Of a stretch of 20,544 nucleotides of DNA, positions 1,286-19,479 are shown piece after piece; positions within the stretch are counted from its first letter, which is position 1, and each line of letters starts with the position of its first letter. The notes below the pieces were generated by a model. It worked only from the letters and a program-made list of their open reading frames with translations. It ran no database searches and was not told the DNA's origin. The stretch comes from Candidatus Thorarchaeota archaeon (GTDB lineage: Archaea; Asgardarchaeota; Thorarchaeia; Thorarchaeales; Thorarchaeaceae): contig JAEOUG010000079.1 in NCBI GenBank assembly GCA_016839445.1, forward strand, positions 1-20,544, given 5' to 3'. Position numbers and translations under genes: made by a program.

Positions 1286-2167
1286 CTAGAACCTATTAGG
1301 TCTAGGCTCCTCACCAGAGTAGTCGTAGAAGCCCATTCCCGACTTCCTGCCAACCCATCCTGCGCGGACCATCTTTCTCAGCAGTGCTGGAGCTCTGTAC
1401 TTCCCATCTTTGAACTCGTCAACGAAGTAGTCACTAATGTATAGCAGAGTATCCAGCCCGACGAAGTCCGCCAGTGTCAGAGGTCCCATCGGCCAGTTCA
1501 GGCCCAGTTTGATTGCCAAATCCATGTCTTCCACTGTCGCCACTCCTTCCTGGATGGCGAAGATGGCCTCATTGATGGCCGGCACAAGCAGTCGGTTCAC
1601 AGCAAAGCCGGGCGCCTCGTTGACCAGCACGGTCTTCTTCCCCAGCCTGCCTGAGACCTCCCTGATTACATCGACCGTGGAGTCATCTGTACCCTGACCC
1701 TTGATTATCTCAACTAGCCCCATTACAGGCACAGGATTGAAGAAGTGCATACCAACGAAGAGGTTGGGCCGCTTCGTCACTGCCGCCATCTGGGTTATGC
1801 TGATGCTGGACGTGTTCGAAGCAAGGATGGCATGTTTGGGAGCGTTGGCATCCACTTCCTTCCAGGTGTCGAGCTTGAGCTTGACGATCTCGGGAATGGC
1901 CTCTATCACAAGATCTGCATCCTTCACTGCATCCTTCAGATCGAGGACACCCTTGATTCTCCCTAGAGTACCATCAATCTCCTCTTGTGTTATCTTCCCT
2001 TTCTTGAGACCTCTCTCCAGGTTCTTCTTGATGGTTGACATCCCATTATCGATGAACTTCTGGTCAATGTCCCGCATCTTCACTTCATATCCTGCCTGAG
2101 CGCAGACTTGGGCTATGCCGTTGCCCATCTGTCCAGCGCCTAGGACTGCGACCTTCTTGATTTCCAT
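1286..2167 (-). CDS. hbd: 3-hydroxybutyryl/3-hydroxyacyl-CoA dehydrogenase
   Basis: Rossmann motif VAVLGAGQMGNGIA, plus ASNTSS, GMHFFNPVPVM, PGFAVNR, PMGPLTLADFVGLD and GRKSGMGFYDY. Likely start is ATG 2167 (MEIKK), preceded by GAGGA; the ORF track extends it to 2221. Confidence 0.95.
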   Translation of the reverse strand: MEIKKVAVLGAGQMGNGIAQVCAQAGYEVKMRDIDQKFIDNGMSTIKKNLERGLKKGKITQEEIDGTLGRIKGVLDLKDAVKDADLVIEAIPEIVKLKLDTWKEVDANAPKHAILASNTSSISITQMAAVTKRPNLFVGMHFFNPVPVMGLVEIIKGQGTDDSTVDVIREVSGRLGKKTVLVNEAPGFAVNRLLVPAINEAIFAIQEGVATVEDMDLAIKLGLNWPMGPLTLADFVGLDTLLYISDYFVDEFKDGKYRAPALLRKMVRAGWVGRKSGMGFYDYSGEEPRPNRF

Positions 2168-2276
2168 AGTCAACTTCCTCATGTCTGTTGGAGAATGACT
2201 TGGCCTCGTTATGCCCTCCAAATATGTTTGACTGTTTAGCAGAAGAAGGGGTTTCGCTTCGCTATGGCTAACGGAT

Positions 2277-2318
2277 AGTCACATGTTGTGACTACTTGTT
2301 GTGACCCTTTGTTGTGGC
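2277..2318 (+). promoter_or_regulatory. Palindrome plus three 13-bp-phased direct repeats, probable transcription-factor binding array
   Basis: AGTCACA-tgt-TGTGACT at 2277-2293. TGTTGTGAC at 2284 and 2297, TGTTGTGGC at 2310. Lies immediately 5' of a TATA box. Confidence 0.6.
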
Positions 2319-2323
2319 TCCGC

Positions 2324-2331
2324 TATATATA
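2324..2331 (+). promoter_or_regulatory. Archaeal TATA box of the small-peptide operon
   Basis: TATATATA ending 33 nt before ATG 2364, consistent with a short-leader first cistron. Confidence 0.6.
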
Positions 2332-2363
2332 CCAAATCTGAGTGGTACTTCTTGTGAAACATC

Positions 2364-2465
2364 ATGGCTCTAGCAACTAACAACCACACATCTGTGCTGA
2401 AGAACAAGACCGGTAAGGCTCAGTCCGCTGATGCTCTTGCCTACGCCTACCAGTATCGGAGGTAG
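2364..2465 (+). CDS. Small peptide P1 (33 aa): MALATNNHTSVLKNKTGKAQSADALAYAYQYRR
   Basis: Manual translation. First ORF after the TATA box; shares the C-terminal DA[ILV]AxAYxYRR motif with P4 and the N-terminal MALAxxxxTS with P2. Confidence 0.75.
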   Translation: MALATNNHTSVLKNKTGKAQSADALAYAYQYRR

Positions 2466-2471
2466 AAGTCT

Positions 2472-2561
2472 ATGGCTCTGGCTAAGCGAGAGAGGACTTC
2501 TGAGAGGAAGAGAATCACGACTGACGCTGTCACATACGCGTACCTGACCACTGTGAGATGA
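2472..2561 (+). CDS. Small peptide P2 (29 aa): MALAKRERTSERKRITTDAVTYAYLTTVR
   Basis: Manual translation. SD GGAGGT is embedded in the end of P1, with a 6-nt gap between the ORFs. Carries ITTDAVTYAY. Confidence 0.75.
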   Translation: MALAKRERTSERKRITTDAVTYAYLTTVR

Positions 2562-2565
2562 TCTC

Positions 2566-2691
2566 ATGCGTGGAAGCGGAACGATTGCGAAGACCCCTGG
2601 AGGCACATCCGACCCCGGATGGCCACTAGGTGACCACAGATTTGCTCAGTTCTTCCCAGAACTAGCATATCTTCTGACCAGTCATACATAG
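2566..2691 (+). CDS. Small peptide P3 (41 aa): MRGSGTIAKTPGGTSDPGWPLGDHRFAQFFPELAYLLTSHT
   Basis: Manual translation. Fills the P2-P4 gap almost exactly (4-nt and 14-nt spacers). Motif similarity is weak (AYLLT vs AYLTT of P2). Confidence 0.5.
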   Translation: MRGSGTIAKTPGGTSDPGWPLGDHRFAQFFPELAYLLTSHT

Positions 2692-2705
2692 GAGTGTGAA
2701 TAATC

Positions 2706-2813
2706 ATGGCTCAGACAACAGGGTCACCGAACACATCCGGAAGACTGGGGCACGCGGTCGGGCGAGGAATCTCTACCGACGCAATCGCTCACGCTTATAG
2801 TTACAGGAGGTAA
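2706..2813 (+). CDS. Small peptide P4 (35 aa): MAQTTGSPNTSGRLGHAVGRGISTDAIAHAYSYRR
   Basis: Manual translation. SD-like AGGAGTGTGA upstream; carries ISTDAIAHAYSYRR. Confidence 0.75.
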   Translation: MAQTTGSPNTSGRLGHAVGRGISTDAIAHAYSYRR

Positions 2814-2819
2814 GCTCCA

Positions 2820-2894
2820 GTGGAACACGAGAAACCCAAGAAGAGATCCAGAATCTCAACTCGCGCTATTGCAGAGCAGTACTTCAGGAGGTAG
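2820..2894 (+). CDS. Small peptide P5 (24 aa, GTG start): MEHEKPKKRSRISTRAIAEQYFRR
   Basis: Manual translation. SD AGGAGGT at the end of P4, 6-nt gap. Carries RISTRAIAEQYFRR. Confidence 0.7.
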   Translation: MEHEKPKKRSRISTRAIAEQYFRR

Positions 2895-2926
2895 TGTCAC
2901 TCCATGAATGTGCCAATGGGCAAAAT

Positions 2927-2989
2927 GTTTGCGTCACACAAAACGTTTATAACAAACCGTTGGTACTACAAACGGTGTCTGACACAAAC
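2927..2989 (+). promoter_or_regulatory. Probable promoter (TATA TTTATAA 2946-2952) with overlapping palindromic operator
   Basis: Near-perfect 21-bp palindrome ACCGTTgGTA-c-TACaAACGGT at 2956-2976. Outer imperfect inverted repeat GTTTGCGTCACAC (2927-2939) / GTCTGACACAAAC (2977-2989). Confidence 0.55.
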
Positions 2990-3015
2990 TCAATTTCTGA
3001 GGTGTGTTCTCGACA

Positions 3016-3336
3016 ATGACAGAAGAGGAGGATGAATGTGACGTTGAATCGAAGTTCAATGGTAGCCTGTGTTACCAGAAGGAACAGGTCGATCAAGGTC
3101 CAGTCGTTCGGCGCCTTCTGTTATGGCGGCTTGATGCTTTCAAGCTAGAGTCGTGCTGCATTCACAATACAACCGGACAAATACACTCTACCTATCTCCC
3201 GCAGCGGTCCTCGCTGTGTGATCCGAGGGCCGCTGCAACCGCCGTTGGAACGACAAAGCCTAACTGCGTGCGAGACCACGTGGCAGACCCAGCTTCTTTG
3301 GTCTCAATACTGGAAGAGGGCATGGTCCGGACATAG
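3016..3336 (+). CDS. Hypothetical protein (106 aa, 6 Cys)
   Basis: SD GAGGTG at 2999-3004, ATG 3016, stop 22 nt before the MFS start. No recognisable motif; could instead be a long leader. Confidence 0.4.
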   Translation: MTEEEDECDVESKFNGSLCYQKEQVDQGPVVRRLLLWRLDAFKLESCCIHNTTGQIHSTYLPQRSSLCDPRAAATAVGTTKPNCVRDHVADPASLVSILEEGMVRT

Positions 3337-3358
3337 GTCATACCAAGAGGAGAAACAA

Positions 3359-4933
3359 ATGAGCAGAATGAAGCAGTTCCTGGGCCTTCCTGACGCAACG
3401 GAAAAGGTCCTTCGACTTGCGCAGGTCATGGCCATACTCGGGCCGCTAGCAAATCTTACGTTCACACTATCGTCGACATTCTACGTTGTCTTCGTCGCAG
3501 GTGCCCTTGGTGGGGGCTCCTTCATCGAGGGCATGGCATTGGTGGGGGTCCTTGTGGTCATCCAGATGGCCACTCAGACGCTTCTGGACTATCCCACTGG
3601 AGCAGTAGGGGATTGGATCGGGCAGAGATATGTCATAGGTTCTGCATCAGTCTTCTACGGCCTATCGTTCTTCATGGTGTCACTTGTCACAGAGGCCACT
3701 CCCTTCTGGTATCTCGCTGTCATCTATGCGGTCAGTGGATTCGCTGGCTCTCAGATGAGCGGAGCTTGGGGCGCATGGTTCGACAACAACTACAGAGTAG
3801 CCATGCCTGGCGACGTAGACAGGAAGCAGTACGGCGTGTTCTGGGGCCGGATGGGCATGATAATGCAGGTTGTAGCGACGGCCTCACTGATTCCAGGAAG
3901 CATCCTTGCCACCATCATCTCTCGTGAGTGGGTCTTTCAAGTTCAGGCAGTTCTCTCAATCGTTTTGGGCATTGTAGCCTTCCGGCTTGTGAGGGACTTT
4001 CCCGAGGTCGAAGAGGAGAGGCGCGCCCAGAACGGAGGGGCAAGACCCAGTATGGGCGAGTACGTTGGGATCCTGAAGGGTGGAGTCTCCTTCCTGTTCA
4101 AACATCCCTTCGTTCGGTACATCGTCATTGGAAGCATGCTTGCTGCCAGTAGCATTATGGTTTGGGGTAATCTGATCCTCTTCCCCATGTACTATAGCTA
4201 CCTCATCACTGACGTTGCCGTAGCAAGCTTCAGAACGCTTCTCTTTGCTCCCGGGATACTGTCCCAAGAGCGCTCTGGAGTCTGGTCTCGCAGATTCGAA
4301 CCGAAGAAGTGGATTCCACGGTTTCGCTTTATCCAGACTTGCGGCTTCGTGTTCTTCTGGGTTTTCGCCGTGATTATGTTCATCTTCCCGCCTGCATTGG
4401 ACTCAACCAATGTGTTTGTGATAACCTGGCCCTTCACAGCTGTGGAGCTCCTTAGGCTCCCTGTGAATAACATCGTGCCTATCGCTCTGATCTTTACCAC
4501 CTTCGTATCGACCAGCTTCTTTGGTGGCTTTGCAGAGATTCTCACTCAGAGGGTTCTTCTGGACGTGATCCCAAACAAGATCAGGAACAGCATGTACTCA
4601 CTTCAGCCAACGATTGCGATGTTGTTCGCTATGCCTCAGATAGCACTCTTCGGTTATCTGCTGACCACCATCGGCTTCCCGCTGACCCTTATGATCTGCG
4701 GAGTAACGTCGTTGGCTGGCGTGCTGCTAATCGCACTTGGTCTAAGGCAGGAGGTGCCTGAGCACGAGGACGACTCTCTTGCCCTGCCTCCAGGAGCCAT
4801 CGTGGAAACCGGTGCCTCATCGCTAGATGTGCCTGACATTGAGGAGGCTGAGGCGACGCTCACGACCGAGGAGGTTCTCGCAGATGAGAATCAGTTTGTG
4901 GCAGAGGTAGAGAGAGTCTCTGCAGAGGACTGA
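3359..4933 (+). CDS. MFS transporter with acidic C-terminal tail
   Basis: About 12 hydrophobic segments. Motif A-like DYPTGAVGDWIGQR and a second-half ILTQRVLLDVIPNKIRNSMYS. SD GAGGAG before ATG 3359; the track's start at 3218 is an unlikely extension. Confidence 0.9.
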   Translation: MSRMKQFLGLPDATEKVLRLAQVMAILGPLANLTFTLSSTFYVVFVAGALGGGSFIEGMALVGVLVVIQMATQTLLDYPTGAVGDWIGQRYVIGSASVFYGLSFFMVSLVTEATPFWYLAVIYAVSGFAGSQMSGAWGAWFDNNYRVAMPGDVDRKQYGVFWGRMGMIMQVVATASLIPGSILATIISREWVFQVQAVLSIVLGIVAFRLVRDFPEVEEERRAQNGGARPSMGEYVGILKGGVSFLFKHPFVRYIVIGSMLAASSIMVWGNLILFPMYYSYLITDVAVASFRTLLFAPGILSQERSGVWSRRFEPKKWIPRFRFIQTCGFVFFWVFAVIMFIFPPALDSTNVFVITWPFTAVELLRLPVNNIVPIALIFTTFVSTSFFGGFAEILTQRVLLDVIPNKIRNSMYSLQPTIAMLFAMPQIALFGYLLTTIGFPLTLMICGVTSLAGVLLIALGLRQEVPEHEDDSLALPPGAIVETGASSLDVPDIEEAEATLTTEEVLADENQFVAEVERVSAED

Positions 4934-4942
4934 TTCGATGAA

Positions 4943-4975
4943 GGCCGCCCTTTCGGCGGCCCTTCTACTTCTTCC
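4943..4975 (+). terminator. Hairpin plus pyrimidine tract after the MFS gene
   Basis: GGCCGCC-ctttc-GGCGGCC followed by CTTCTACTTCTTCC. Confidence 0.6.
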
Positions 4976-5080
4976 TAGGAAAGTATATACAGGCTCATGT
5001 TGAAGGCCGTTCGGTGCTTACTTATGACAGATAGGCCGCATTTTCTGAATGTCCAGTACTCAGGGTCTGGACTAACCACC

Positions 5081-5905
5081 ATGGACTATGAGAAACGAAT
5101 GGTCCGGGAGCAGGATGTGAAGTTTGACGGCGAAGATGGCTCAATCGAGCTGACTGACGTACGCCTAGTGTGGATCAAGGCCCCGAAGAAGAAGAGTGGA
5201 ATGAAGAGGTTCGGTGCTCTTGCAGCGGGCATCGCTGGCGCCGCTCTATTAGAGGGTGCAGGGAGACAGGTGGGAGGTATCGGAGGTCGCATGCTCAGAA
5301 GTGCAGGGCGCGGCATAGGCGTTGCAGCTGTGGGTACAGCAATCAGCGGATGGACTCGCGACTCATTCTATAACAAGGATGCAGACGGTAACACTGAGAG
5401 TCTTGCCCTTCCGGTTGCCGTGATATCTCAGGCCACCCAGAGCGGTGACAACCTTGTGGTCGAGCTGAAATCCGGTGGGAATATGCAGTTTCAATTCAAA
5501 CAGAAGAAAGTGATTCCGTCCATAGTTGCCAATCTCACGCAGGCGCAGGGAGAAGGGAAGTGTCCCTACTGTGGCGCCGGAGCGGCTACGAACATGTCCT
5601 CATGTCCGAGATGCAATGCTCCTCTTGGTGGTTCGGGCAAGCCGGCCCCTTCAGGTGGCGGCGGTGGTGGACGAGCGGACTTCTCCGGAACCCCTGGCGA
5701 GATGCATATCCACTACCAGGGTGATGAAGGAGGTCCAGAGTCTGTCACTGTCAGATATGGCGAAGACCGTGACGGTGATGGCAGGCCTGACAGCGTGTCT
5801 ATTGACTACGGCGGCCAGGCTGGCGGCGGAGGCTACTGCGCAAACTGCGGGGCGCAATATCCGGCAGGAGCCAAGTTCTGCAACAAGTGCGGCAACAAGG
5901 TTTGA
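5081..5905 (+). CDS. Hypothetical protein: PH/GRAM-like domain with glycine-zipper insert and two C4 zinc ribbons
   Basis: GSIELTDVRLVW...LALPVAVISQA...LVVEL pattern; CPYC-x10-CPRC and CANC-x10-CNKC; DRDGDGRPD loop. TATA-like AAAGTATATA near 4980-4989. Start uncertain (4997, 5024 or 5081). Confidence 0.75.
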   Translation: MDYEKRMVREQDVKFDGEDGSIELTDVRLVWIKAPKKKSGMKRFGALAAGIAGAALLEGAGRQVGGIGGRMLRSAGRGIGVAAVGTAISGWTRDSFYNKDADGNTESLALPVAVISQATQSGDNLVVELKSGGNMQFQFKQKKVIPSIVANLTQAQGEGKCPYCGAGAATNMSSCPRCNAPLGGSGKPAPSGGGGGGRADFSGTPGEMHIHYQGDEGGPESVTVRYGEDRDGDGRPDSVSIDYGGQAGGGGYCANCGAQYPAGAKFCNKCGNKV

Positions 5906-5924
5906 TGGCCTCTATCAGGCTGTG

Positions 5925-5946
5925 AGGGTTCTCTTCGGAGAACCCT
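5925..5946. terminator. Perfect hairpin between convergent genes (probable bidirectional terminator)
   Basis: AGGGTTCTC-TTCG-GAGAACCCT, a 9-bp stem with cUUCGg tetraloop, followed by a T-rich tract. Confidence 0.7.
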
Positions 5947-5961
5947 TCTCTCGTTTTCTTC

Positions 5962-6723
5962 CTAGCGCACAAGGTCTTCTTCTCTAGGCCTGTTAATCTC
6001 GGTGCATTTCCCGGTCCTGTCCGTGGTAGTGTAGCCCCTGATCAAGACAAAAGGAGTCCGTTCGTTCGCCTGTCCCATGAGATTCTCTGCAAGAGCGCAC
6101 AGCTCATCTACTTGACAGACAGTGGATCGCTTCAGCTCTCTGCCGTACAGGTCTCTCTTCCCTGCATTCATCTTGAAAGGACTGATGCCAGCGCAGCCAA
6201 TTGCGACATTGATGGATCCCTTTCTCCATGGTCTACCTTGCGTGTCGCTGATTATGACCGCAAGCTCAGCGCCTGTATGCTTCTCGAGTTCGCTTCTTAT
6301 TCTGGCTGCTGAGGCGTCCGGGTCACTGGGCAAGAGAACGTAGGTGCCCTCTTCTGTGTTCGACCGGTCCACGCCACTGAAGTTGCACACAAGCCCGCTA
6401 TGAGTTTCCGTAATGAGTACCTTCACATCTCTGATGACTTCGGATGCTTCATGAAGTGCTATCTGAACGTGAACGGGGTCAAAGCCGTTGGCCTTGGCAA
6501 TAGCCGCCGCCTTATCGGACACACTTACCTCCTCTCCCCGGACAACTCTGCCCTCCGACTTGGAGACGACCTTCGACGATATGACCAGAATGTCCCCAGA
6601 CAGGAGGCTCATTCCCCTATTATCTGAGGCTCGAAGAATCAGCGCCTCCAGTGAGTCTCCCTCCCTCACTTCATCCTGTACTGTCAGACCATATGCTTCG
6701 ACAGTCACGTTCGTCACAGGCAT
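5962..6723 (-). CDS. cofE: Coenzyme F420-0:L-glutamate ligase
   Basis: GDILVISSKVVSKSEGR, NFSGVDRSN, LLPSDPDASAARIR, VIISDTQGRPWRKG, DLYGREL, DELCALAENLMGQANE. Likely start ATG 6723 (MPVTNV). Confidence 0.93.
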   Translation of the reverse strand: MPVTNVTVEAYGLTVQDEVREGDSLEALILRASDNRGMSLLSGDILVISSKVVSKSEGRVVRGEEVSVSDKAAAIAKANGFDPVHVQIALHEASEVIRDVKVLITETHSGLVCNFSGVDRSNTEEGTYVLLPSDPDASAARIRSELEKHTGAELAVIISDTQGRPWRKGSINVAIGCAGISPFKMNAGKRDLYGRELKRSTVCQVDELCALAENLMGQANERTPFVLIRGYTTTDRTGKCTEINRPREEDLVR

Positions 6724-6968: not shown

Positions 6969-8990
6969 ATGGAGAGATGCGAATTGAGTCCCTCGAAAAA
7001 GACTACGAAGTCCAGCCCATCGGCGAGCAAGAAGAACCCCGCGGGAGCGGCATCCATGCCTGCGGGCGACATTAAGCAGGGGACAATCGCCAAGTTCATG
7101 AGGAAACGGACTCAGCTGGTCGGCTTCGAGACCGGGCTGAACAAGCATACTCAATATGCTATAGAGTTCCTCGACAATGCAATTGATGCTCTTGAGAGCT
7201 GGTGGTGGAAATCGAAGAGTCGACCCCGGCTTTCCGAGACCCTTGATCAAGAGACTGTTGATGAAGTCCGCGCGAAGCTAAAGGAGGGTCAAATCGACTC
7301 CATTGCTCTTAGCAAGCAGATTGAGCGAGACGTGAGAGCTGGAAAAGAAATCGAAATACCGACAGCCCGTAAGGACACACTCGACGATCGAGTGACTGAG
7401 TTCCGGAAGATTATGACCCCTCTGCGGACACTACTCAACAAGAGAGAGCCGCTTGTATTCATGCAACTCACTGAAGTCCAAATGCCGGACCTGGTTCCCG
7501 CTGATGATGAAGAGGGATTCAAGGTCTATGAGTTCACCTGCTTTGATACCGGCGTTGGGATGGTCCCTGAAGACCTTGAGAAATTCGGGATATACCTTGC
7601 CTCATCCAAATCTGAGAAGCTTCGGCAGACAAGAGGCAGCCAAGGTTTCGGTGCGCCATCAGCATTCAGTGATGCCCAGAACACTACCGGGAAGCCGATC
7701 TTCACTGTTTCACAGCGGTTCAACTCAGACGAGGCAACAGTGGCCAGTTTCTACACAACCACGGCAAATACCAAGGAGTACGTTGGTGGTCCCCTTCAGA
7801 TGTCCCTGCCATTCAACCACGGGACGTACATCCGCTTGTACTACTTGAACATTCAGTACCGTCGTGGTTATTCAGACATCTATGCCGAGATGGCCTCACT
7901 CCTAAACTCACATGTCACAATCATCTTCGTAGACCCCTACGGCGAAGTACACGTCTTTCCGAGAAGGGTCACACAGATGCCGGAAGAACCGAAGTACGCC
8001 CAACCCCATCCTGCCAGTATTAGGATTGGAGAGTTTCAGGACCTGCTTCGTGAGACCAACGAAAATGACCTTCGAGGATTCCTCACCAGGGCCTTCTGCC
8101 GCTTAAGCTCCAACAAGGCGAAGACAATCATAGAGTCCGCTAGCAAGGAACTCCGAAGGCGACATCTTGACGGGCTGAAGATGAACACACCCACTGAGGC
8201 TCTCTCGAAAACCGAAGTAGAGCTTCTCTATAGGGCATTCTCAAGCGAGGACTATATCGCGCCTCCGACAGACACCGTTGTCCCAGTTGGCGAGGAAGTG
8301 TTCGAACAGACCATTCAGATGGCATACAAGCCTGATTTCGTTGCAGCAGTGACAAGGCGGCCAACATCTGGAAAGGGTCTATCCTTCGCAGTGGAGGTCT
8401 GCATAGCATACGGCGGCGAGATCAAAGCCGCAACTTCAGCGCCGATGGTGTTGTGGCGCTTCGTGAATAGAGTGCCGAAGCTGAGGGACAACAGCGACTG
8501 TGCAACATGGAAGGCAACAACTCTTGTCAACTGGAAGAACTACAAGGTAGCCACATTTGATAATGGAATACCCCGCGGACCAATCATGGTCTTCATACAT
8601 GTCTGTGGGGCCTACGTACATGTCATGTTCAAGGGGCAGAGCAAACAGGCTCTCGCAGAAGATGAGGTCCTTCTCAGGGAGATCAAGCTAGCACTGGAAG
8701 ACGCCGGTCGGAAATTTCGACGCTTCATCACCAGGAGAGAAACGGCTAGACGCAAAGCAAAGAGAGCGGGCATTCTCGCTATGTATGCAGACCAGTTCGC
8801 TCAGAGTCTGGTAAATATCGCCAACAGTAGTGCGAAGAAGAAGAAGTTCGATGCTGAATTGATAGCAAGCAAGATCAGAGACTCGATCTCTGGCTTCGAG
8901 ACTGCTGAGGATCAAGAAGAGACTGAAACTGATACTATAGGCTCAGACCTTGTGGCGGATGTTCCGCTTGACGGAGATGATGAGGAATGA
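6969..8990 (+). CDS. top6B: DNA topoisomerase VI subunit B
   Basis: GHKL motifs EFLDNAIDA, DTGVG and QTRGSQGFG, H2TH region, transducer RFVNRVP...FKGQSKQAL. Adjacent to top6A. Start is ATG 6969, TTG 6984 or ATG 7056. Confidence 0.95.
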   Translation: MERCELSPSKKTTKSSPSASKKNPAGAASMPAGDIKQGTIAKFMRKRTQLVGFETGLNKHTQYAIEFLDNAIDALESWWWKSKSRPRLSETLDQETVDEVRAKLKEGQIDSIALSKQIERDVRAGKEIEIPTARKDTLDDRVTEFRKIMTPLRTLLNKREPLVFMQLTEVQMPDLVPADDEEGFKVYEFTCFDTGVGMVPEDLEKFGIYLASSKSEKLRQTRGSQGFGAPSAFSDAQNTTGKPIFTVSQRFNSDEATVASFYTTTANTKEYVGGPLQMSLPFNHGTYIRLYYLNIQYRRGYSDIYAEMASLLNSHVTIIFVDPYGEVHVFPRRVTQMPEEPKYAQPHPASIRIGEFQDLLRETNENDLRGFLTRAFCRLSSNKAKTIIESASKELRRRHLDGLKMNTPTEALSKTEVELLYRAFSSEDYIAPPTDTVVPVGEEVFEQTIQMAYKPDFVAAVTRRPTSGKGLSFAVEVCIAYGGEIKAATSAPMVLWRFVNRVPKLRDNSDCATWKATTLVNWKNYKVATFDNGIPRGPIMVFIHVCGAYVHVMFKGQSKQALAEDEVLLREIKLALEDAGRKFRRFITRRETARRKAKRAGILAMYADQFAQSLVNIANSSAKKKKFDAELIASKIRDSISGFETAEDQEETETDTIGSDLVADVPLDGDDEE

Positions 8991-11131
8991 GCCGTAGGAA
9001 GAAGTCAGTAAAGGATGAGAGTACGGTTCAGACTACTCTTGTCGAAGAGGACAAGAAGAAGTCGAAATCTGCGAAAGGGAGCAAGAAGAAGGTGTCCAGC
9101 AAGAAGTCACCAAAGAAGACAACCGCAAAGAAGGAGACCACGAAGCCCTCAAGTAAGAAGGATTCAGTGAAGGAGAAGCCTGCCAAGAAGACGACGAAGA
9201 GAAGTGCAAAGAAGCCGTCGACGAAGGCGAAGAAACAGGCGAAAAAGGCGAAGCCCGAGGTCTCGAAGGATACGATAGTAGAGCTGACGTCCATTCCTGG
9301 AGTTGGAGGGAAGCTTGCTGAACGGCTTGCACTTGCTGGATATGACTCCATTGAGCGGATTGCACGTGCGAGAGCCACGTCAATCTCAAAGAAGGTGGAG
9401 GGTGTCAGCGAAGATGGAGCAAAGAAGCTGGTTGCAGCGGCAAAGGACGCTCTAATGATGGCTGGTGCTCCTGAGGTTGAGGTTGCCGATGCTGGCGCGC
9501 CAGACGATAGAATGAGTCTGAGAGATGTGCCAGGTGTCGGAGAGAAGCTGGCCATTTCACTCACAAGAGCGGGCTATGATTCGGTAGAGCGACTCTCTCG
9601 AGCTAGGCCAGAGAGTATATCCAAGTATGTTGACGGTGTGAGCGATGCGACGGCTCGAAAACTAGTCGATGCAGCCATCACCATGGTGAAGGAGCGAGAG
9701 GTTGCTGCCATAACTGGTCCTCAGGAACCGGTCGTAGTTGCGGCCAAGAAAGCTGAGGCGACGAAGGCTCCAGAGCCAGTGGTCGAGACTGCTGAGGAGG
9801 CCGAGGACGAGCCCAAGAAGAGAGAGCCGAAGCCGAAAGAGAAGAAGGCAAAGAAGAAACCTGAGAGCAAGCCCAAGGCAAAGCCACTTCCACCACCAAA
9901 GAAGACGAAGCCAAAGGTTGTGAGAAAGGATTCTGGTCTCCCTGTTCCTGACGCCGTGAGGAGTCTCTCGAAGGAAATGAAGGAGCAGTGGGCCGAGGCC
10001 GCCAAGGCTGCCAAACGAAAGAAGACTGAGGACGAGTCTGAAGAACAGCTAGAGACAGTAGAAGTCGTGAATCTGTCAGCAGATGACACAAGCGATCGAC
10101 TCGTTGACGTTGCGATTGAGATATTGAACGAGACCATGATGACCGGCCGTCCGGCGTTCGAGATTCCAAGTCGGTCTGGTGACAACATTGTCTGGGATGA
10201 GGTGCGTGACCTATTGCTCCTTGGGATGCGAACGATATCCCGACCCTACCATTCACTGGCCTCGGTAGTAGATGCAACAAGGACCGCTCGCGTCATGGAG
10301 ATTGTCTTTGAGTTGCTGAATTCAAGTCTCCATGCAACGAAACGAGAGGTGTACTACAGCGATGTGAACCTATTCAGGGATCAGAAATACAGTGACAAGA
10401 TCATTGAAGATGTGGCCTCAATGCTCCAGACTACTCGTGACAGCATTCACGTAGTCGCTTCAGCTAGAGGTTCTGCGATGGGCCGCGTAGTCATTCGTGA
10501 TGGTGGTGACCTCATCGATCTCACCAAGATGGGTACAGGAGGCTGGGCTGTCACTCCCTTCCTCGACCAACTCGAGATTGTGGAGAGCGATGCCGAGTTC
10601 ATCATTCTCTCTGAGAAGGACGCCGCTGTGATGCGACTGGCAGAGGCGAAGTACTGGAACAGACAACCCTGTATTGTCCTCACTGGCAAAGGTTCCGGCG
10701 ACATCGCCACTCGAGCCTTCCTCAAGATGCTAGTGAAGGAATTGGAGATTCCTGCGTTTGCACTTGTCGACTCCGACCCCTACGGACACTACATCTACTC
10801 AGTGTTCCTTAGAGGTAGCAAGAGGCTGAGCTATGAATCGCCCTTCATCGCTACTCCTGAACTGAAGCTGCTGGGCGTGCTTAGTCGTGATCTCGACCAG
10901 TACAACATTCCGAAGTCTGTACGCATCCCTATGCAACCGACAGACATCAAGAGGGTCCGCGACATGCTCAAGGAACCCTTTGTCAAGCAGAACAAGCCAT
11001 GGGTTGAAGACTTGAGGCTCATGCTCAGCATGAAGGAAAAGGCTGAGATTCAGTCCTTCGCCAGTCACAGCTTCGAGTATCTGACGGACGAGTACTTGCC
11101 AACCAAGCTTGAAACTGGTGACTGGATCTGA
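8987..11131 (+). CDS. top6A: DNA topoisomerase VI subunit A (Spo11-like) with long N-terminal extension
   Basis: Catalytic TKREVYY, TOPRIM EKDA, TGKG...TRAFL, DSDPYG and KAEIQS. ATGA overlap with top6B. N-terminal ~360 aa consist of Lys-rich tracts and two HhH domains. Confidence 0.95.
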   Translation: MSRRKKSVKDESTVQTTLVEEDKKKSKSAKGSKKKVSSKKSPKKTTAKKETTKPSSKKDSVKEKPAKKTTKRSAKKPSTKAKKQAKKAKPEVSKDTIVELTSIPGVGGKLAERLALAGYDSIERIARARATSISKKVEGVSEDGAKKLVAAAKDALMMAGAPEVEVADAGAPDDRMSLRDVPGVGEKLAISLTRAGYDSVERLSRARPESISKYVDGVSDATARKLVDAAITMVKEREVAAITGPQEPVVVAAKKAEATKAPEPVVETAEEAEDEPKKREPKPKEKKAKKKPESKPKAKPLPPPKKTKPKVVRKDSGLPVPDAVRSLSKEMKEQWAEAAKAAKRKKTEDESEEQLETVEVVNLSADDTSDRLVDVAIEILNETMMTGRPAFEIPSRSGDNIVWDEVRDLLLLGMRTISRPYHSLASVVDATRTARVMEIVFELLNSSLHATKREVYYSDVNLFRDQKYSDKIIEDVASMLQTTRDSIHVVASARGSAMGRVVIRDGGDLIDLTKMGTGGWAVTPFLDQLEIVESDAEFIILSEKDAAVMRLAEAKYWNRQPCIVLTGKGSGDIATRAFLKMLVKELEIPAFALVDSDPYGHYIYSVFLRGSKRLSYESPFIATPELKLLGVLSRDLDQYNIPKSVRIPMQPTDIKRVRDMLKEPFVKQNKPWVEDLRLMLSMKEKAEIQSFASHSFEYLTDEYLPTKLETGDWI

Positions 11132-16955: not shown

Positions 16956-17603
16956 CTATACGCCTAGTTTGGAGGGTCTATGGGGCGGCGTGCCTGCCAT
17001 CGTCTGGTCTATTGGCCCGAGTTCTTGTTGCTTCTCGATTGCTCTCTTCACAAGATCGGTGAATAGCAGGTTGATGTTCTCGCCCGTCTTAGCAGAAGTC
17101 TCGTAGTGCATCACGTCGAGCCACTGCTGAACCATATTGCCGGCCTCGCTTGGGACCAGTCTGTCCTCTCTGTCTATCTTATTGGCAACTACTGCCACGA
17201 CGGCATTCGGGCACACTGTGATGAACCTAGTAAACCAGTCGCCAATGTCAAGGAAGGTCTGAGGTCTCGTTACATCATACACTATCATGGCCATGGAAGC
17301 GCCAGCCATGTATCTGCGTCTGAGCTCGTTGTAGGTTGGTTGGCCTGCCAGATCCCAGAGCACAACACGCGCCGTCACGGTGCTTCCTGATGGTAGTTCC
17401 ACATCCAATGTCTTCAGAGCGAAGGTCGTTCCAATAGTGGCGATGTACCGTTCGCTGAAGCTGTCCTCCGTGTATCGCTTGATACAAGACGTCTTACCGA
17501 CAGCCCCGTCCCCTAATGCCACTAGTTTGAACATATGGGAAACTGAAGACATGTCGTTTGCCATGTTCTTGTCAAACCTAGTTTTCTCTTCATCGTCAAT
17601 CAC
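16956..17603 (-). CDS. Ras-superfamily (Rab-like) small GTPase
   Basis: G1 GDGAVGKT, G2 TIG, G3 WDLAGQ, G4 NKID, G5 ETSAK. No C-terminal Cys prenylation motif. Start may be ATG 17564. Confidence 0.95.
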   Translation of the reverse strand: MIDDEEKTRFDKNMANDMSSVSHMFKLVALGDGAVGKTSCIKRYTEDSFSERYIATIGTTFALKTLDVELPSGSTVTARVVLWDLAGQPTYNELRRRYMAGASMAMIVYDVTRPQTFLDIGDWFTRFITVCPNAVVAVVANKIDREDRLVPSEAGNMVQQWLDVMHYETSAKTGENINLLFTDLVKRAIEKQQELGPIDQTMAGTPPHRPSKLGV

Positions 17604-18888: not shown

Positions 18889-19479
18889 TCACGCAAGAGG
18901 ACTCTTCCCCTCACCAAGTGCCTTTTGGAGAAGTGCCTCTGCACAACGCGTAAACACGTCCGCGACATTCTCGCCCGTCTTTGCTGAAGTCTCATGGTAC
19001 TCTGACTGGAACCAATCTCTTAGCATCTGGCCTGGCTGCAAAGGCACCATCCGGTCCTTCGCCAGGTCCACCTTGTTCGCACAGATCATCACAGGCGCGT
19101 CGGGGCAGACTTCTCTGAATGACTCAAACCAGTTGTTCATCGCCATGAATGTCTCAGGTCTGGTGACATCATAGACAATGAGCGCTGCGGAAGCTCCCTT
19201 CATGAACTGTCTTCTGAGCTCCCGGTAGGTCGATTGACCGCCCATATCCCATATATTGAGGCGAACCTTCCTGTTGCTTCCGTCTTGGTCGGTGATATCG
19301 ACATCCTTGTTTGCGAAGGTCGTGCCTATGGTCTGCTTGTAGGATTCCTCGAAGACACTCTCTGTGTATCTGCGAACGAGACTCGTCTTCCCAACGCCAG
19401 CCTCCCCGAGCAGGACTACCCTGAATTTGTAGCCATCAAACCCGTTTGAGGAATCAGCTGATAGTCCGTCATCAGTCAC
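18889..19479 (-). CDS. Ras-superfamily (Rab-like) small GTPase, paralog of 16956-17603
   Basis: G1 GEAGVGKT, TIG, WDMGGQ, NKVD, ETSAK. SD GGAGG upstream of the GTG start. Confidence 0.95.
   Translation of the reverse strand: MTDDGLSADSSNGFDGYKFRVVLLGEAGVGKTSLVRRYTESVFEESYKQTIGTTFANKDVDITDQDGSNRKVRLNIWDMGGQSTYRELRRQFMKGASAALIVYDVTRPETFMAMNNWFESFREVCPDAPVMICANKVDLAKDRMVPLQPGQMLRDWFQSEYHETSAKTGENVADVFTRCAEALLQKALGEGKSPLA

Follow-up and report, generated by a model that had tools for sequence, protein, structure and literature searches.

The window, i.e., the whole analyzed DNA stretch of 20,544 nucleotides from Candidatus Thorarchaeota archaeon (GenBank assembly GCA_016839445.1, contig JAEOUG010000079.1), carries five tiny open reading frames, P1 to P5, on the forward strand upstream of a gene of an MFS transporter (Table 1). 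The ORFs are separated by only 6, 4, 14 and 6 nt. P1, P2, P4 and P5 share one reading frame, and P3 is in another. In the first-pass annotation, the five ORFs were described as tandem micropeptides with a conserved Tyr-rich C-terminal motif, from which P3 diverges. Reading the sequence confirmed these ORFs, their C-termini and the use of different codons for the conserved residues (GAT GCT / GAC GCT / GAC GCA; GCC TAC / GCG TAC / GCT TAT). In addition, the last codons of each upstream peptide (CGG AGG TAG, AGG AGG TAA) form a Shine-Dalgarno-like GGAGG just before the next start.

Table 1. Features of the micropeptide array and the adjacent MFS gene
Position	Strand	Feature	Observations
2277..2293	+	Palindromic operator AGTCACA-TGT-TGTGACT, first element of the conserved promoter	Conserved across the aligned paralogous and orthologous loci
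2300..2319	+	Two further half-sites, TGTGACCC (2300-2307) and TGTGGCT (2313-2319), spaced 13 nt apart	The last abuts the TATA box; both are part of the promoter pattern used for the search
2324..2331	+	TATA box TATATATA	Ends 32 nt before the P1 ATG
2352..2363	+	Conserved TTGTGAAACATC just before the ATG; likely start-site region and very short leader (inferred)	Near-invariant in the aligned loci
2364..2465	+	P1, type A peptide (33 aa, pI 10.0)	62.4 bits
2472..2561	+	P2, type B peptide (29 aa, pI 10.4)	46.6 bits; starts behind GGAGG
2566..2691	+	P3 (41 aa), a kept-open spacer frame and not a family member	No profile hit
2620..2705	+	Internal, decayed copy of the promoter (GGTGACCACAG ... GCATATCTTCTGACC ... 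GTGTGAATAATC-ATG)	Alignment of promoters with internal regions in 12 loci
2706..2813	+	P4, second type A-like peptide (35 aa, pI 10.8)	61.3 bits; RNA-library contigs cover 2538-2921
2820..2894	+	P5, second type B-like peptide (24 aa, GTG start, pI 10.9)	42.9 bits; orthologues ending ISTRAIAExYFRR are present
2895..3358	+	Conserved leader between the array and the MFS gene, with a TATA-like TTTATAA at 2946-2952	Nucleotide conservation across 9 species; an RNA-library contig spans 2881-3044
3201..3236	+	13-bp stem (GCAGCGGTCCTCG / CGAGGGCCGCTGC) with loop CTGTGTGATC inside the MFS leader	RNAalifold consensus; both-sided changes at 2 of the 13 stem pairs, with 8 valid rows out of the 9 aligned
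3359..4933	+	MFS transporter of a lineage-specific family	PF07690, 58.8 bits

P1, P2, P4 and P5 belong to a family of Thorarchaeota peptides

In order to determine whether the motif could arise by chance, a profile of the family was searched against all 121,196 stop-to-stop frames of at least 12 aa in the 2.9 Mb genome. It found exactly 10 members in 4 loci at 42.9-69.8 bits, and the next frames scored 9.6 and 9.4 bits. The motif is thus far beyond chance. Matches occur in 68 of 87 genomes of the class and in 0 of 16 outside the family, with 2-13 profile matches per genome and no stops inside any listed match. A search among 1.84 billion representatives gave 31 hits at E<=1e-3. By eye, about 24 of them are true short peptides of 29-42 aa (22 of them) or 70-72 aa (2 fusions).

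Substitutions are biased to synonymous sites only in the annotated frame. Over 308 pairs, dN/dS is 0.31 against 1.19 and 1.25 in the other frames. Type A alone gives 0.32 against 1.18 and 1.21, and type B gives 0.24 against 1.41 and 1.50. The first-pass inference of a diversified paralogous peptide family under selection on the peptide rather than on a DNA repeat is therefore supported.

It turned out that P3 is different. In 11 orthologous loci its frame has 0 stops while the other frames have 2-4, but there is no frame-specific synonymous bias (0.69 against 1.02 and 0.63). P3 is best read as a translated spacer over the decayed internal promoter copy, so the array is two A/B modules in tandem and not five members of one family.

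The peptides are roughly 24-38 residues long. Type A (usually 33-37 aa) and type B (24-33 aa in the loci read) are paralogues. They are basic and hydrophilic (pI 10-10.9, GRAVY -0.55 to -1.64), start with MAL and have a variable middle and a conserved core (S/T)-T-x-A-(L/I/V)-x-x-A-Y-x-x-R-R. We saw no hydrophobic leader or double-glycine motif in the alignments. N-glycosylation sequons in type A are not conserved across members by eye. AF2 predicts, with only moderate confidence (mean pLDDT 67), a disordered N-terminus and one helix at residues 22-31 of type A. In 45 of the 83 loci with enough downstream sequence there are exactly two profile hits. In 18 of 116 loci an acidic type C peptide follows B in frame, and two natural B-C fusions exist. 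The AF2 model of one such fusion (2-row alignment) showed two helices without confident packing (pTM 0.18) and is uninformative.

No described family was recognized in the first-pass annotation, and this holds as far as we could test. NCBIfam at E<=0.1 (P5 not included), PHROGs and PADLOC gave no family for P1-P5, and Pfam gave none for P1 and P4 at E<=0.01. Rfam at permissive E-value found no family over 1800-3600. The ESM Atlas gave no usable hit for P1. The only PDB profile hits were to Cas7/Csa2 at E=1.2, and PF01905 was found in 0 of 28 genomes of the genus, including the window's own (89.8% complete). We treat this likeness as chance. A limited literature search listed nothing relevant.

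The peptide modules share a near-invariant promoter

The promoter of the modules, with its palindrome, two further half-sites and TATA box, is near-invariant across paralogues and species. Its pattern hit at least 116 stretches. The first ATG sits 60-63 nt after the pattern start in 105 of 109 readable loci. The same promoter type directly precedes a paralogue of the window MFS gene. A closely related promoter precedes a bactofilin-domain gene. It is found beside a small winged-helix gene, the candidate regulator, in 11 of 14 loci, and that gene is single-copy in 28 of 28 genomes of the genus.

We also assessed whether the locus is transcribed. Contigs 100% identical to the window, from three RNA libraries of two studies, cover 2538-3044. 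This is only a hint of expression, since these are low-depth assembled contigs (depth 2-3) and DNA carry-over is not excluded.

The recurring neighbors are MFS transporters

In 40 of 116 modules, an MFS gene of one of two unrelated families follows on the same strand. The window-type MFS follows in 22 loci, and a second family (MFS_1 plus MFS_3) in 18 loci. In the junctions read, the second family starts about 5-15 nt after the stop of B. In 5 of the 18 loci, a second module lies between. Over 87 genomes, the presence of peptide/MFS is +/+ 63, +/- 5, -/+ 10 and -/- 9. This association is not corrected for relatedness, and the profile, built from one genome, may miss distant members.

The window MFS protein gave no hit against PDB sequences at E<=0.1 and no NCBIfam family, so no substrate can be inferred. 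Complex prediction for the window MFS (14-row alignment) and type A (87 rows), run without controls, scored 0.01, which counts neither for nor against binding. A resemblance between the tails of C-type peptides (EEVLxLEAT) and of the window MFS (TTEEVLADE) is not supported, as the motif is absent from the MFS alignment consensus. None of the 20 neighbor families annotated across the 116 loci is a radical SAM, P450, ATP-grasp, YcaO or dedicated RiPP-processing enzyme. The families found are ordinary syntenic genes, including an S33 hydrolase, GNAT, HDAC and methyltransferases. No modifying enzyme lies in the window either.

Discussion

We are highly confident that the peptides are real, that they have a dedicated regulon and that they are linked to MFS genes. 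The window holds two tandem copies of a Thorarchaeota-specific micro-operon. Small proteins are the least charted part of archaeal genomes, and this multi-copy family, below usual annotation cut-offs, is found in most Thorarchaeia genomes searched. The function of the peptides is unproven. No partner has been identified, and their translation and location are unmeasured. Tentatively, we favor a model in which A and B (with C where present) are soluble small proteins made in bulk when the candidate winged-helix regulator switches the regulon. They may act in trans inside the cell, docking through the conserved C-terminal helix onto a conserved partner. The most economical partners are the co-expressed MFS transporters or a nucleic acid. 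The intracellular helical docking peptides proposed among the first-pass options fit the predicted disordered basic N-terminus and short C-terminal helix. The tight spacing of the ORFs and the kept-open P3 frame between the modules would keep all peptides of one transcript expressed together. However, many paralogous copies per genome and a variable middle region fit secreted or antagonistic peptides at least as well as a regulator.

The main rival, which we consider rather unlikely but cannot rule out, is that A/B (and C) peptides, intact or after cleavage, are exported by the linked MFS transporters as signals, antagonistic peptides or chelators. Several unlinked peptide operons and the transporter operons would then share one operator, and the MFS or peptide C could double as self-protection. 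The peptide genes come first and a transporter gene last, which is the classic cargo-plus-exporter layout. The peptides are paired, cationic and diversified, their promoter type is shared with an MFS paralogue, and one of the MFS families matches the MFS_3 model, described in Pfam as 'Transmembrane secretion effector'. The first-pass suggestion of a link to the adjacent MFS is strongly supported genetically, though export itself is not shown. On the other hand, the peptides are strongly hydrophilic and have no leader, signal peptide or double-glycine motif. MFS carriers typically move small substrates, and export of a peptide of about 3.7 kDa would probably be unusual for them. No ABC/C39 exporter, protease or immunity-like membrane protein is among the 20 annotated neighbor families. 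The most conserved part is a short helix shared by all paralogues, which suits a common docking partner better than target diversification, and a bactofilin-domain gene in the same regulon does not fit a bacteriocin system. In a broader form, likewise unlikely, the paired A/B and acidic C micropeptides would be the cargo or gatekeepers of two families of MFS transporters in a signaling or antagonism system gated by a transcription factor, with no leader peptide and no ABC exporter. We know of no such system in archaea, and the limited literature search listed none.

It is improbable that A and B are cis-acting leader ORFs, whose translation senses a small molecule or ribosome status, for example by arrest at the C-terminal motif, and sets the amount of downstream MFS through termination-reinitiation. 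The conserved residues do lie within the last 13 or so codons before the stop, and the next ORF, including the MFS_3 gene in the junctions read, starts a few nt later behind a Shine-Dalgarno motif formed by the final Arg codons. P3 is kept open without visible amino-acid selection, which suits a requirement for ribosome passage, and a conserved, structured leader precedes the window's MFS gene. However, 76 of 116 modules (about 60%) have no downstream same-strand MFS gene. In the window's own genome, three of the four modules are followed by a tRNA or by opposite-strand genes. The N-terminal MAL motif and the middle region are also under purifying selection, and the conserved C peptides and the B-C fusions point to protein products.

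It is very doubtful that the peptides are RiPP or cofactor precursors, modified in the Tyr region by an enzyme encoded elsewhere, with the small product exported by the MFS. Position 29 is Tyr in all 10 copies of this genome, Ala-24 and Ala-28 are invariant in the 87-row alignment, precursor genes are multi-copy, and an MFS could handle a small processed product. However, this first-pass option gets no support from the neighbor families annotated, and the tyrosine is replaced by Phe, Met or Asn in some members. The reading of the ORFs as non-coding by-products of a conserved promoter, RNA element or repeat is already largely refuted for P1, P2, P4 and P5: although the promoter, the first five or so codons of type A and the terminal GGAGG are conserved at the nucleotide level and P3 shows no coding signature, the synonymous bias is frame-specific for A and for B, the listed matches have no stops, the MAL start of type B uses varied codons (GCT, GCA, GCG; CTG, CTC, CTT, CTA) and Rfam gave no match.

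Whichever of the trans-acting, exported or leader mechanisms holds, we know of no precedent for it in Asgard archaea. Nevertheless, some known systems appear similar. Small cytosolic or basic proteins of bacteria, such as MntS with MntP and FbpA/B/C of the Bacillus Fur regulon, may be a parallel to the favored model, as short soluble proteins that are probably switched on by the same regulator as transport genes; Fbp proteins seem to be likewise basic and paralogous. There is no sequence similarity to them, and the peptides here are far more numerous, are arranged as translationally coupled A/B(/C) sets, and sit in the same operon as the transporter. The multi-operon two-peptide (class IIb) bacteriocin and pheromone regulons of lactic acid bacteria, e.g., the plantaricin locus, would share with the array adjacent small cationic peptide genes, several operons with conserved repeat operators, and a transporter operon under the same control. 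In contrast to them, the peptides have no double-glycine leader, no ABC/C39 exporter among the 20 annotated neighbor families and no GxxxG or amphipathic membrane helices, the transporters are MFS, and the host is an Asgard archaeon. Leader or arrest peptides of resistance and efflux genes (Erm and Mef leaders, TnaC) are likely to resemble the array in having conserved residues next to the stop and in some modules a downstream gene a few nt later, but most copies here seem to have no downstream gene to regulate, selection also acts on the N-terminus, and conserved C peptides and B-C fusions exist. Precursors with a key tyrosine (PqqA, MftA, biarylitides) may be compared as tiny, sometimes multi-copy genes with a near-invariant Tyr, but no radical SAM or P450 enzyme was found among the neighbor families annotated in the 116 loci, and the usual layout of a conserved leader and a variable core is reversed.

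Organization of the locus

The first-pass annotation described five same-strand ORFs (P1–P5) separated by 6, 4, 14 and 6 nt. We found all five exactly where it had placed them, and the C-termini and the differing codons it had given for the shared D-A and A-Y residues were also read correctly. P1, P2, P4 and P5 lie in one reading frame and P3 lies in another. The last Arg codons of each upstream peptide (CGG AGG TAG; AGG AGG TAA) form a GGAGG Shine-Dalgarno motif a few bases before the next start. The window is a whole contig of a 2.91 Mb, 190-contig genome with 52.6% G+C, and the neighbouring genes are ordinary archaeal ones. On the left, an S33 hydrolase and a 3-hydroxyacyl-CoA dehydrogenase are encoded on the minus strand. 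On the right, there are an MFS transporter, a zinc-ribbon protein, the F420 ligase CofE and topoisomerase VI B and A, followed by RadA, a geranylgeranyl reductase, two Ras-family GTPases and PheT. The topoisomerase VI A subunit is 714 aa long and carries an N-terminal region with helix-hairpin-helix domains (HHH_5 and others) ahead of the TP6A_N and Toprim domains. The two Ras/Roc-family small GTPase genes lie about 1.3 kb apart. No peptide-modifying enzyme lies in the window. The coordinates of the features are collected in the table.

Positions of the features in the window and in related loci
Feature	Sequence	Position	Strand
Palindrome AGTCACA-N3-TGTGACT	window	2277-2293	
First further half-site	window	2300-2307	
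Second further half-site	window	2313-2319	
TATA box TATATATA	window	2324-2331	
TTGTGAAACATC, directly before the ATG	window		
Stretch aligning with the promoter, overlapped by P3	window	2620-2705	
Regions 100% identical to RNA-library contigs	window	2658-2921; 2538-2805; 2881-3044 plus 3834-4046	
Conserved leader of the MFS gene	window	2895-3358	
Stem-loop within this leader	window	3201-3236	
Protein ending in a zinc ribbon	window	4997-5905	
Protein ending in a zinc ribbon	L130 (another locus)	1854-2684	
Topoisomerase VI A	window	8987-11131	
Ras/Roc-family small GTPase	window	16956-17603	minus
Ras/Roc-family small GTPase	window	18889-19479	minus
Type C peptide	L003 (locus on contig C157 of this genome)	2921-3031	
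Winged-helix gene, operator, TATA box and bactofilin-domain gene	L140 (locus on contig C98 of this genome)	1170-2920	
MFS paralogue and GyrI-like protein	L141 (locus on contig C164 of this genome)	3592-6308	
Third copy of the window-type MFS family	contig C6 of this genome	52534-53994	minus

The peptides form a multicopy, lineage-specific family

In order to determine whether the shared motif exceeds chance, we first searched the genome with a regular expression, which found paralogues on contigs C7, C97 and C157. We then built a profile from the ten sequences and searched it against all 121,196 stop-to-stop frames of at least 12 aa in the genome. It returned exactly those ten at 42.9–69.8 bits, and the next frames scored 9.6 and 9.4 bits. 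P3 did not score. The same profile matched 24 of 24 other genomes of the genus, with 3–13 matches each, and 0 of 16 genomes from other families of the order and phylum. Across the class, 68 of 87 genomes have a match at E<=1e-4, covering 13 of 17 genera, and the one genome of the second family has none. None of the listed matches contains a stop. A full HMMER scan of 1.84 billion representative proteins gave 31 hits at E<=1e-3. Judged by eye, about 24 are true members, 22 of them 29–42 aa long and two of them 70–72 aa fusions, and the rest are translated DNA repeats or unrelated proteins.

To test whether the reading frame is under selection, we collected 160 unique family coding sequences from all fetched loci and compared every same-length pair with at least 75% nucleotide identity (308 pairs), leaving out the first five and last four codons. 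The dN/dS is 0.31 in the annotated frame and 1.19 and 1.25 in the two shifted frames. For type A peptides it is 0.32 against 1.18 and 1.21 (254 pairs), and for type B peptides 0.24 against 1.41 and 1.50 (34 pairs). The pairs are not independent, but the shifted frames are a fair internal control. A cruder, misaligned comparison gave 0.70 against 0.96 and 0.95. Two parts are also conserved at the nucleotide level, namely the first five or so codons of type A and the terminal GGAGG(T)GA. The MAL start of type B uses varied codons, so that motif is selected as protein.

Promoter and composition of the module

All four loci of this genome, and the loci from relatives, share a remarkably conserved upstream region, which consists of a palindrome, two further half-sites at 13-nt spacing, the TATA box and the sequence directly before the ATG. 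We scanned a 32-position pattern taken from this region over one genome for each of about 185,000 species, where by our own calculation about 0.07 hits would be expected by chance. The 80 titles examined read Thorarchaeota (64), 'uncultured archaeon' (11), Promethearchaeota (4) and Hermodarchaeota (1). In 105 of the 109 loci with readable downstream sequence, the first ATG lies 60–63 nt after the pattern start and opens a type A peptide. Over all loci the ORFs opening at exactly +63 are 29–38 aa long, and 107 of 114 are 33–36 aa.

Type A (MALTTNxxNTSVLKN...STDALxYAY-YRR or -TVVR) is normally followed by type B (MALAK...K(R)ISTDAITRAYFRR). Type B starts a few nt after the stop of A or overlaps the frame of A, behind GGAGGTGA. 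In 18 of 116 loci a third peptide, type C, follows B. It is always in frame with B, and its ATG lies two codons after the stop of B. Type C is not basic and ends (L/I)(T/S)x(E/D)(E/D)VLxLEAT. Its coding signal is weaker, 0.43 against 0.80 and 1.51 over 9 pairs. Two database proteins (P0009 and P0023) are natural B-C fusions in which Gln replaces the stop.

The stretch of the window that P3 overlaps aligns with the promoter itself. It keeps the GTCACA-type sites and the GTGTGAATAATC-ATG start region, but the TATA box has decayed to GCATATCTT. The array is therefore two modules in tandem: P1–P2, then a remnant promoter, then P4–P5. In 11 orthologous loci the P3-like frame has no stops, while the other two frames carry 2–4 each. 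This frame shows no frame-specific synonymous bias (0.69 against 1.02 and 0.63) and no three-base periodicity. In our reading, the frame is kept open, perhaps so that ribosomes can pass on to P4, while its amino-acid sequence is not what selection sees.

Association with MFS transporters

A fifth copy of the promoter in this genome, on contig C164, directly drives a 508-aa paralogue of the window's MFS. It is followed by a 348-aa GyrI-like small-molecule-binding protein with weak DUF6144 and V4R matches, which hints at a xenobiotic or ligand response. We clustered all ORFs of at least 100 aa in the 116 promoter loci and annotated the 20 largest families. Two families lie consistently downstream on the same strand: the window-type MFS, with 23 ORFs in 22 loci, and a different MFS family in 18 loci (MFS_1 125 bits plus MFS_3 110 bits). 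In the junctions we read (for example, at the promoter loci L128, L089 and L109), the second family starts about 5–15 nt after the stop of B, behind the Shine-Dalgarno motif in the last codons of B. In 5 of the 18 loci a second module lies in between. Thus, in 40 of 116 modules a transporter gene follows on the same strand, and the transporters come from two families. The other recurrent neighbours are ordinary syntenic genes: 3-hydroxyacyl-CoA dehydrogenase, S33 hydrolase, URO-D, PolX, GNAT, HDAC, amino-acid kinase, zinc ribbons, OsmC and a P-type ATPase. None of the 20 families is a radical SAM, P450, ATP-grasp or YcaO enzyme or an ABC/C39 exporter. A roughly 280–300-aa protein ending in a zinc ribbon, otherwise unannotated, follows the MFS gene on the same strand in 13 loci.

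The window-type MFS family is itself confined to the class. It occurs in 73 of 87 genomes at E<=1e-60, with 1–7 copies. A third copy in this genome carries one in-frame TGA and may be a pseudogene, a sequencing error or a recoded codon. We cross-tabulated this family with the peptides. The association is positive, although it is not corrected for relatedness, and all five peptide-only genomes are 52–87% complete.

Co-occurrence of the peptides and the window-type MFS in 87 genomes of the class
Peptides	MFS	Genomes
+	+	63
+	-	5
-	+	10
-	-	9

The leader of the window's MFS gene is conserved at the nucleotide level across 9 species. It holds a 13-bp G+C-rich stem with loop (T)TTGTGTGATC, and both-sided changes occur at 2 of the 13 stem pairs. 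Most relatives have a second hairpin (GAATCTCC...GGAGATTC) that the window lacks. There is no Rfam match. It is possible that this leader is a cis-regulatory RNA for the transporter.

Candidate regulator, peptide properties and expression

An exact palindrome plus TATA on contig C98 precedes the gene of a 413-aa bactofilin-domain protein, and immediately upstream lies a 124-aa winged-helix gene (HTH_45). The winged-helix gene is single-copy in 28 of 28 genomes of the genus. In 11 of the 14 fetched loci from the genus, the operator and a promoter very like the peptide promoter lie beside it, and in the four loci we checked the gene behind it opens like the bactofilin-domain gene. By position, the small winged-helix protein is the candidate regulator, which is an inference only, and the bactofilin-domain gene is a further candidate target of the regulon.

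The four member peptides are basic (pI 10.0–10.9) and hydrophilic (GRAVY −0.55 to −1.64). AF2 with an 87-sequence alignment predicts a disordered N-terminal two-thirds and one helix at residues 22–31. The mean pLDDT is 67, and it is about 80 over the helix. The residues conserved across family members (T22, A24, A28, Y29, R32) lie in or next to this predicted helix. Three RNA libraries from two studies hold contigs 100% identical to parts of the window. Their depth is only 2–3 and these are assembled contigs, so this is a hint of transcription across P2–P5 and into the MFS leader rather than proof of it.

Possible function and comparison with known systems

These results indicate with high confidence a real, translated-looking, lineage-specific micro-protein family, organized in A/B(/C) micro-operons behind a dedicated operator and promoter and genetically coupled to MFS transporters. 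How it works is inferred. Tentatively, we favour soluble trans-acting small proteins that dock by the C-terminal helix onto a conserved partner (the transporters or nucleic acid) in an inducible transporter regulon. Exported cargo, resembling two-peptide bacteriocin or pheromone regulons, seems less likely but remains possible. The many diversified copies and the operon order, with the peptides first and the transporter last, argue for export, whereas the hydrophilic, leaderless, roughly 3.7 kDa nature of the peptides argues against MFS export of the intact peptides. Cis-acting leader or arrest ORFs seem unlikely. Most modules have no downstream gene, which, together with the conserved C peptides, argues against a purely cis-acting role. 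RiPP or cofactor precursors are more doubtful still. No enzyme recurs near the peptide genes among the annotated neighbour families, which argues against RiPPs. A non-coding origin is very improbable. Part of the likelihood is left unassigned.

No curated family matches these peptides, and the literature searches, judged from their listings alone, yielded nothing on such peptides. The only structural-database likeness is a chance-level similarity to the Cas7/Csa2 N-terminus, and that family is absent from the genus. We regard the peptides as a new family, and at most as a new form of peptide-plus-transporter regulon. If neither export nor transporter modulation holds, it could turn out to be something further removed. 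Apart from the pairs of adjacent small peptide genes, the defining features of the bacteriocin and RiPP classes that could be tested here were not found. The closest known kinds, apparently and by analogy only, are plantaricin-type regulons, the MntS and Fbp small proteins, the Erm and Mef leader peptides, and PqqA-type precursors.
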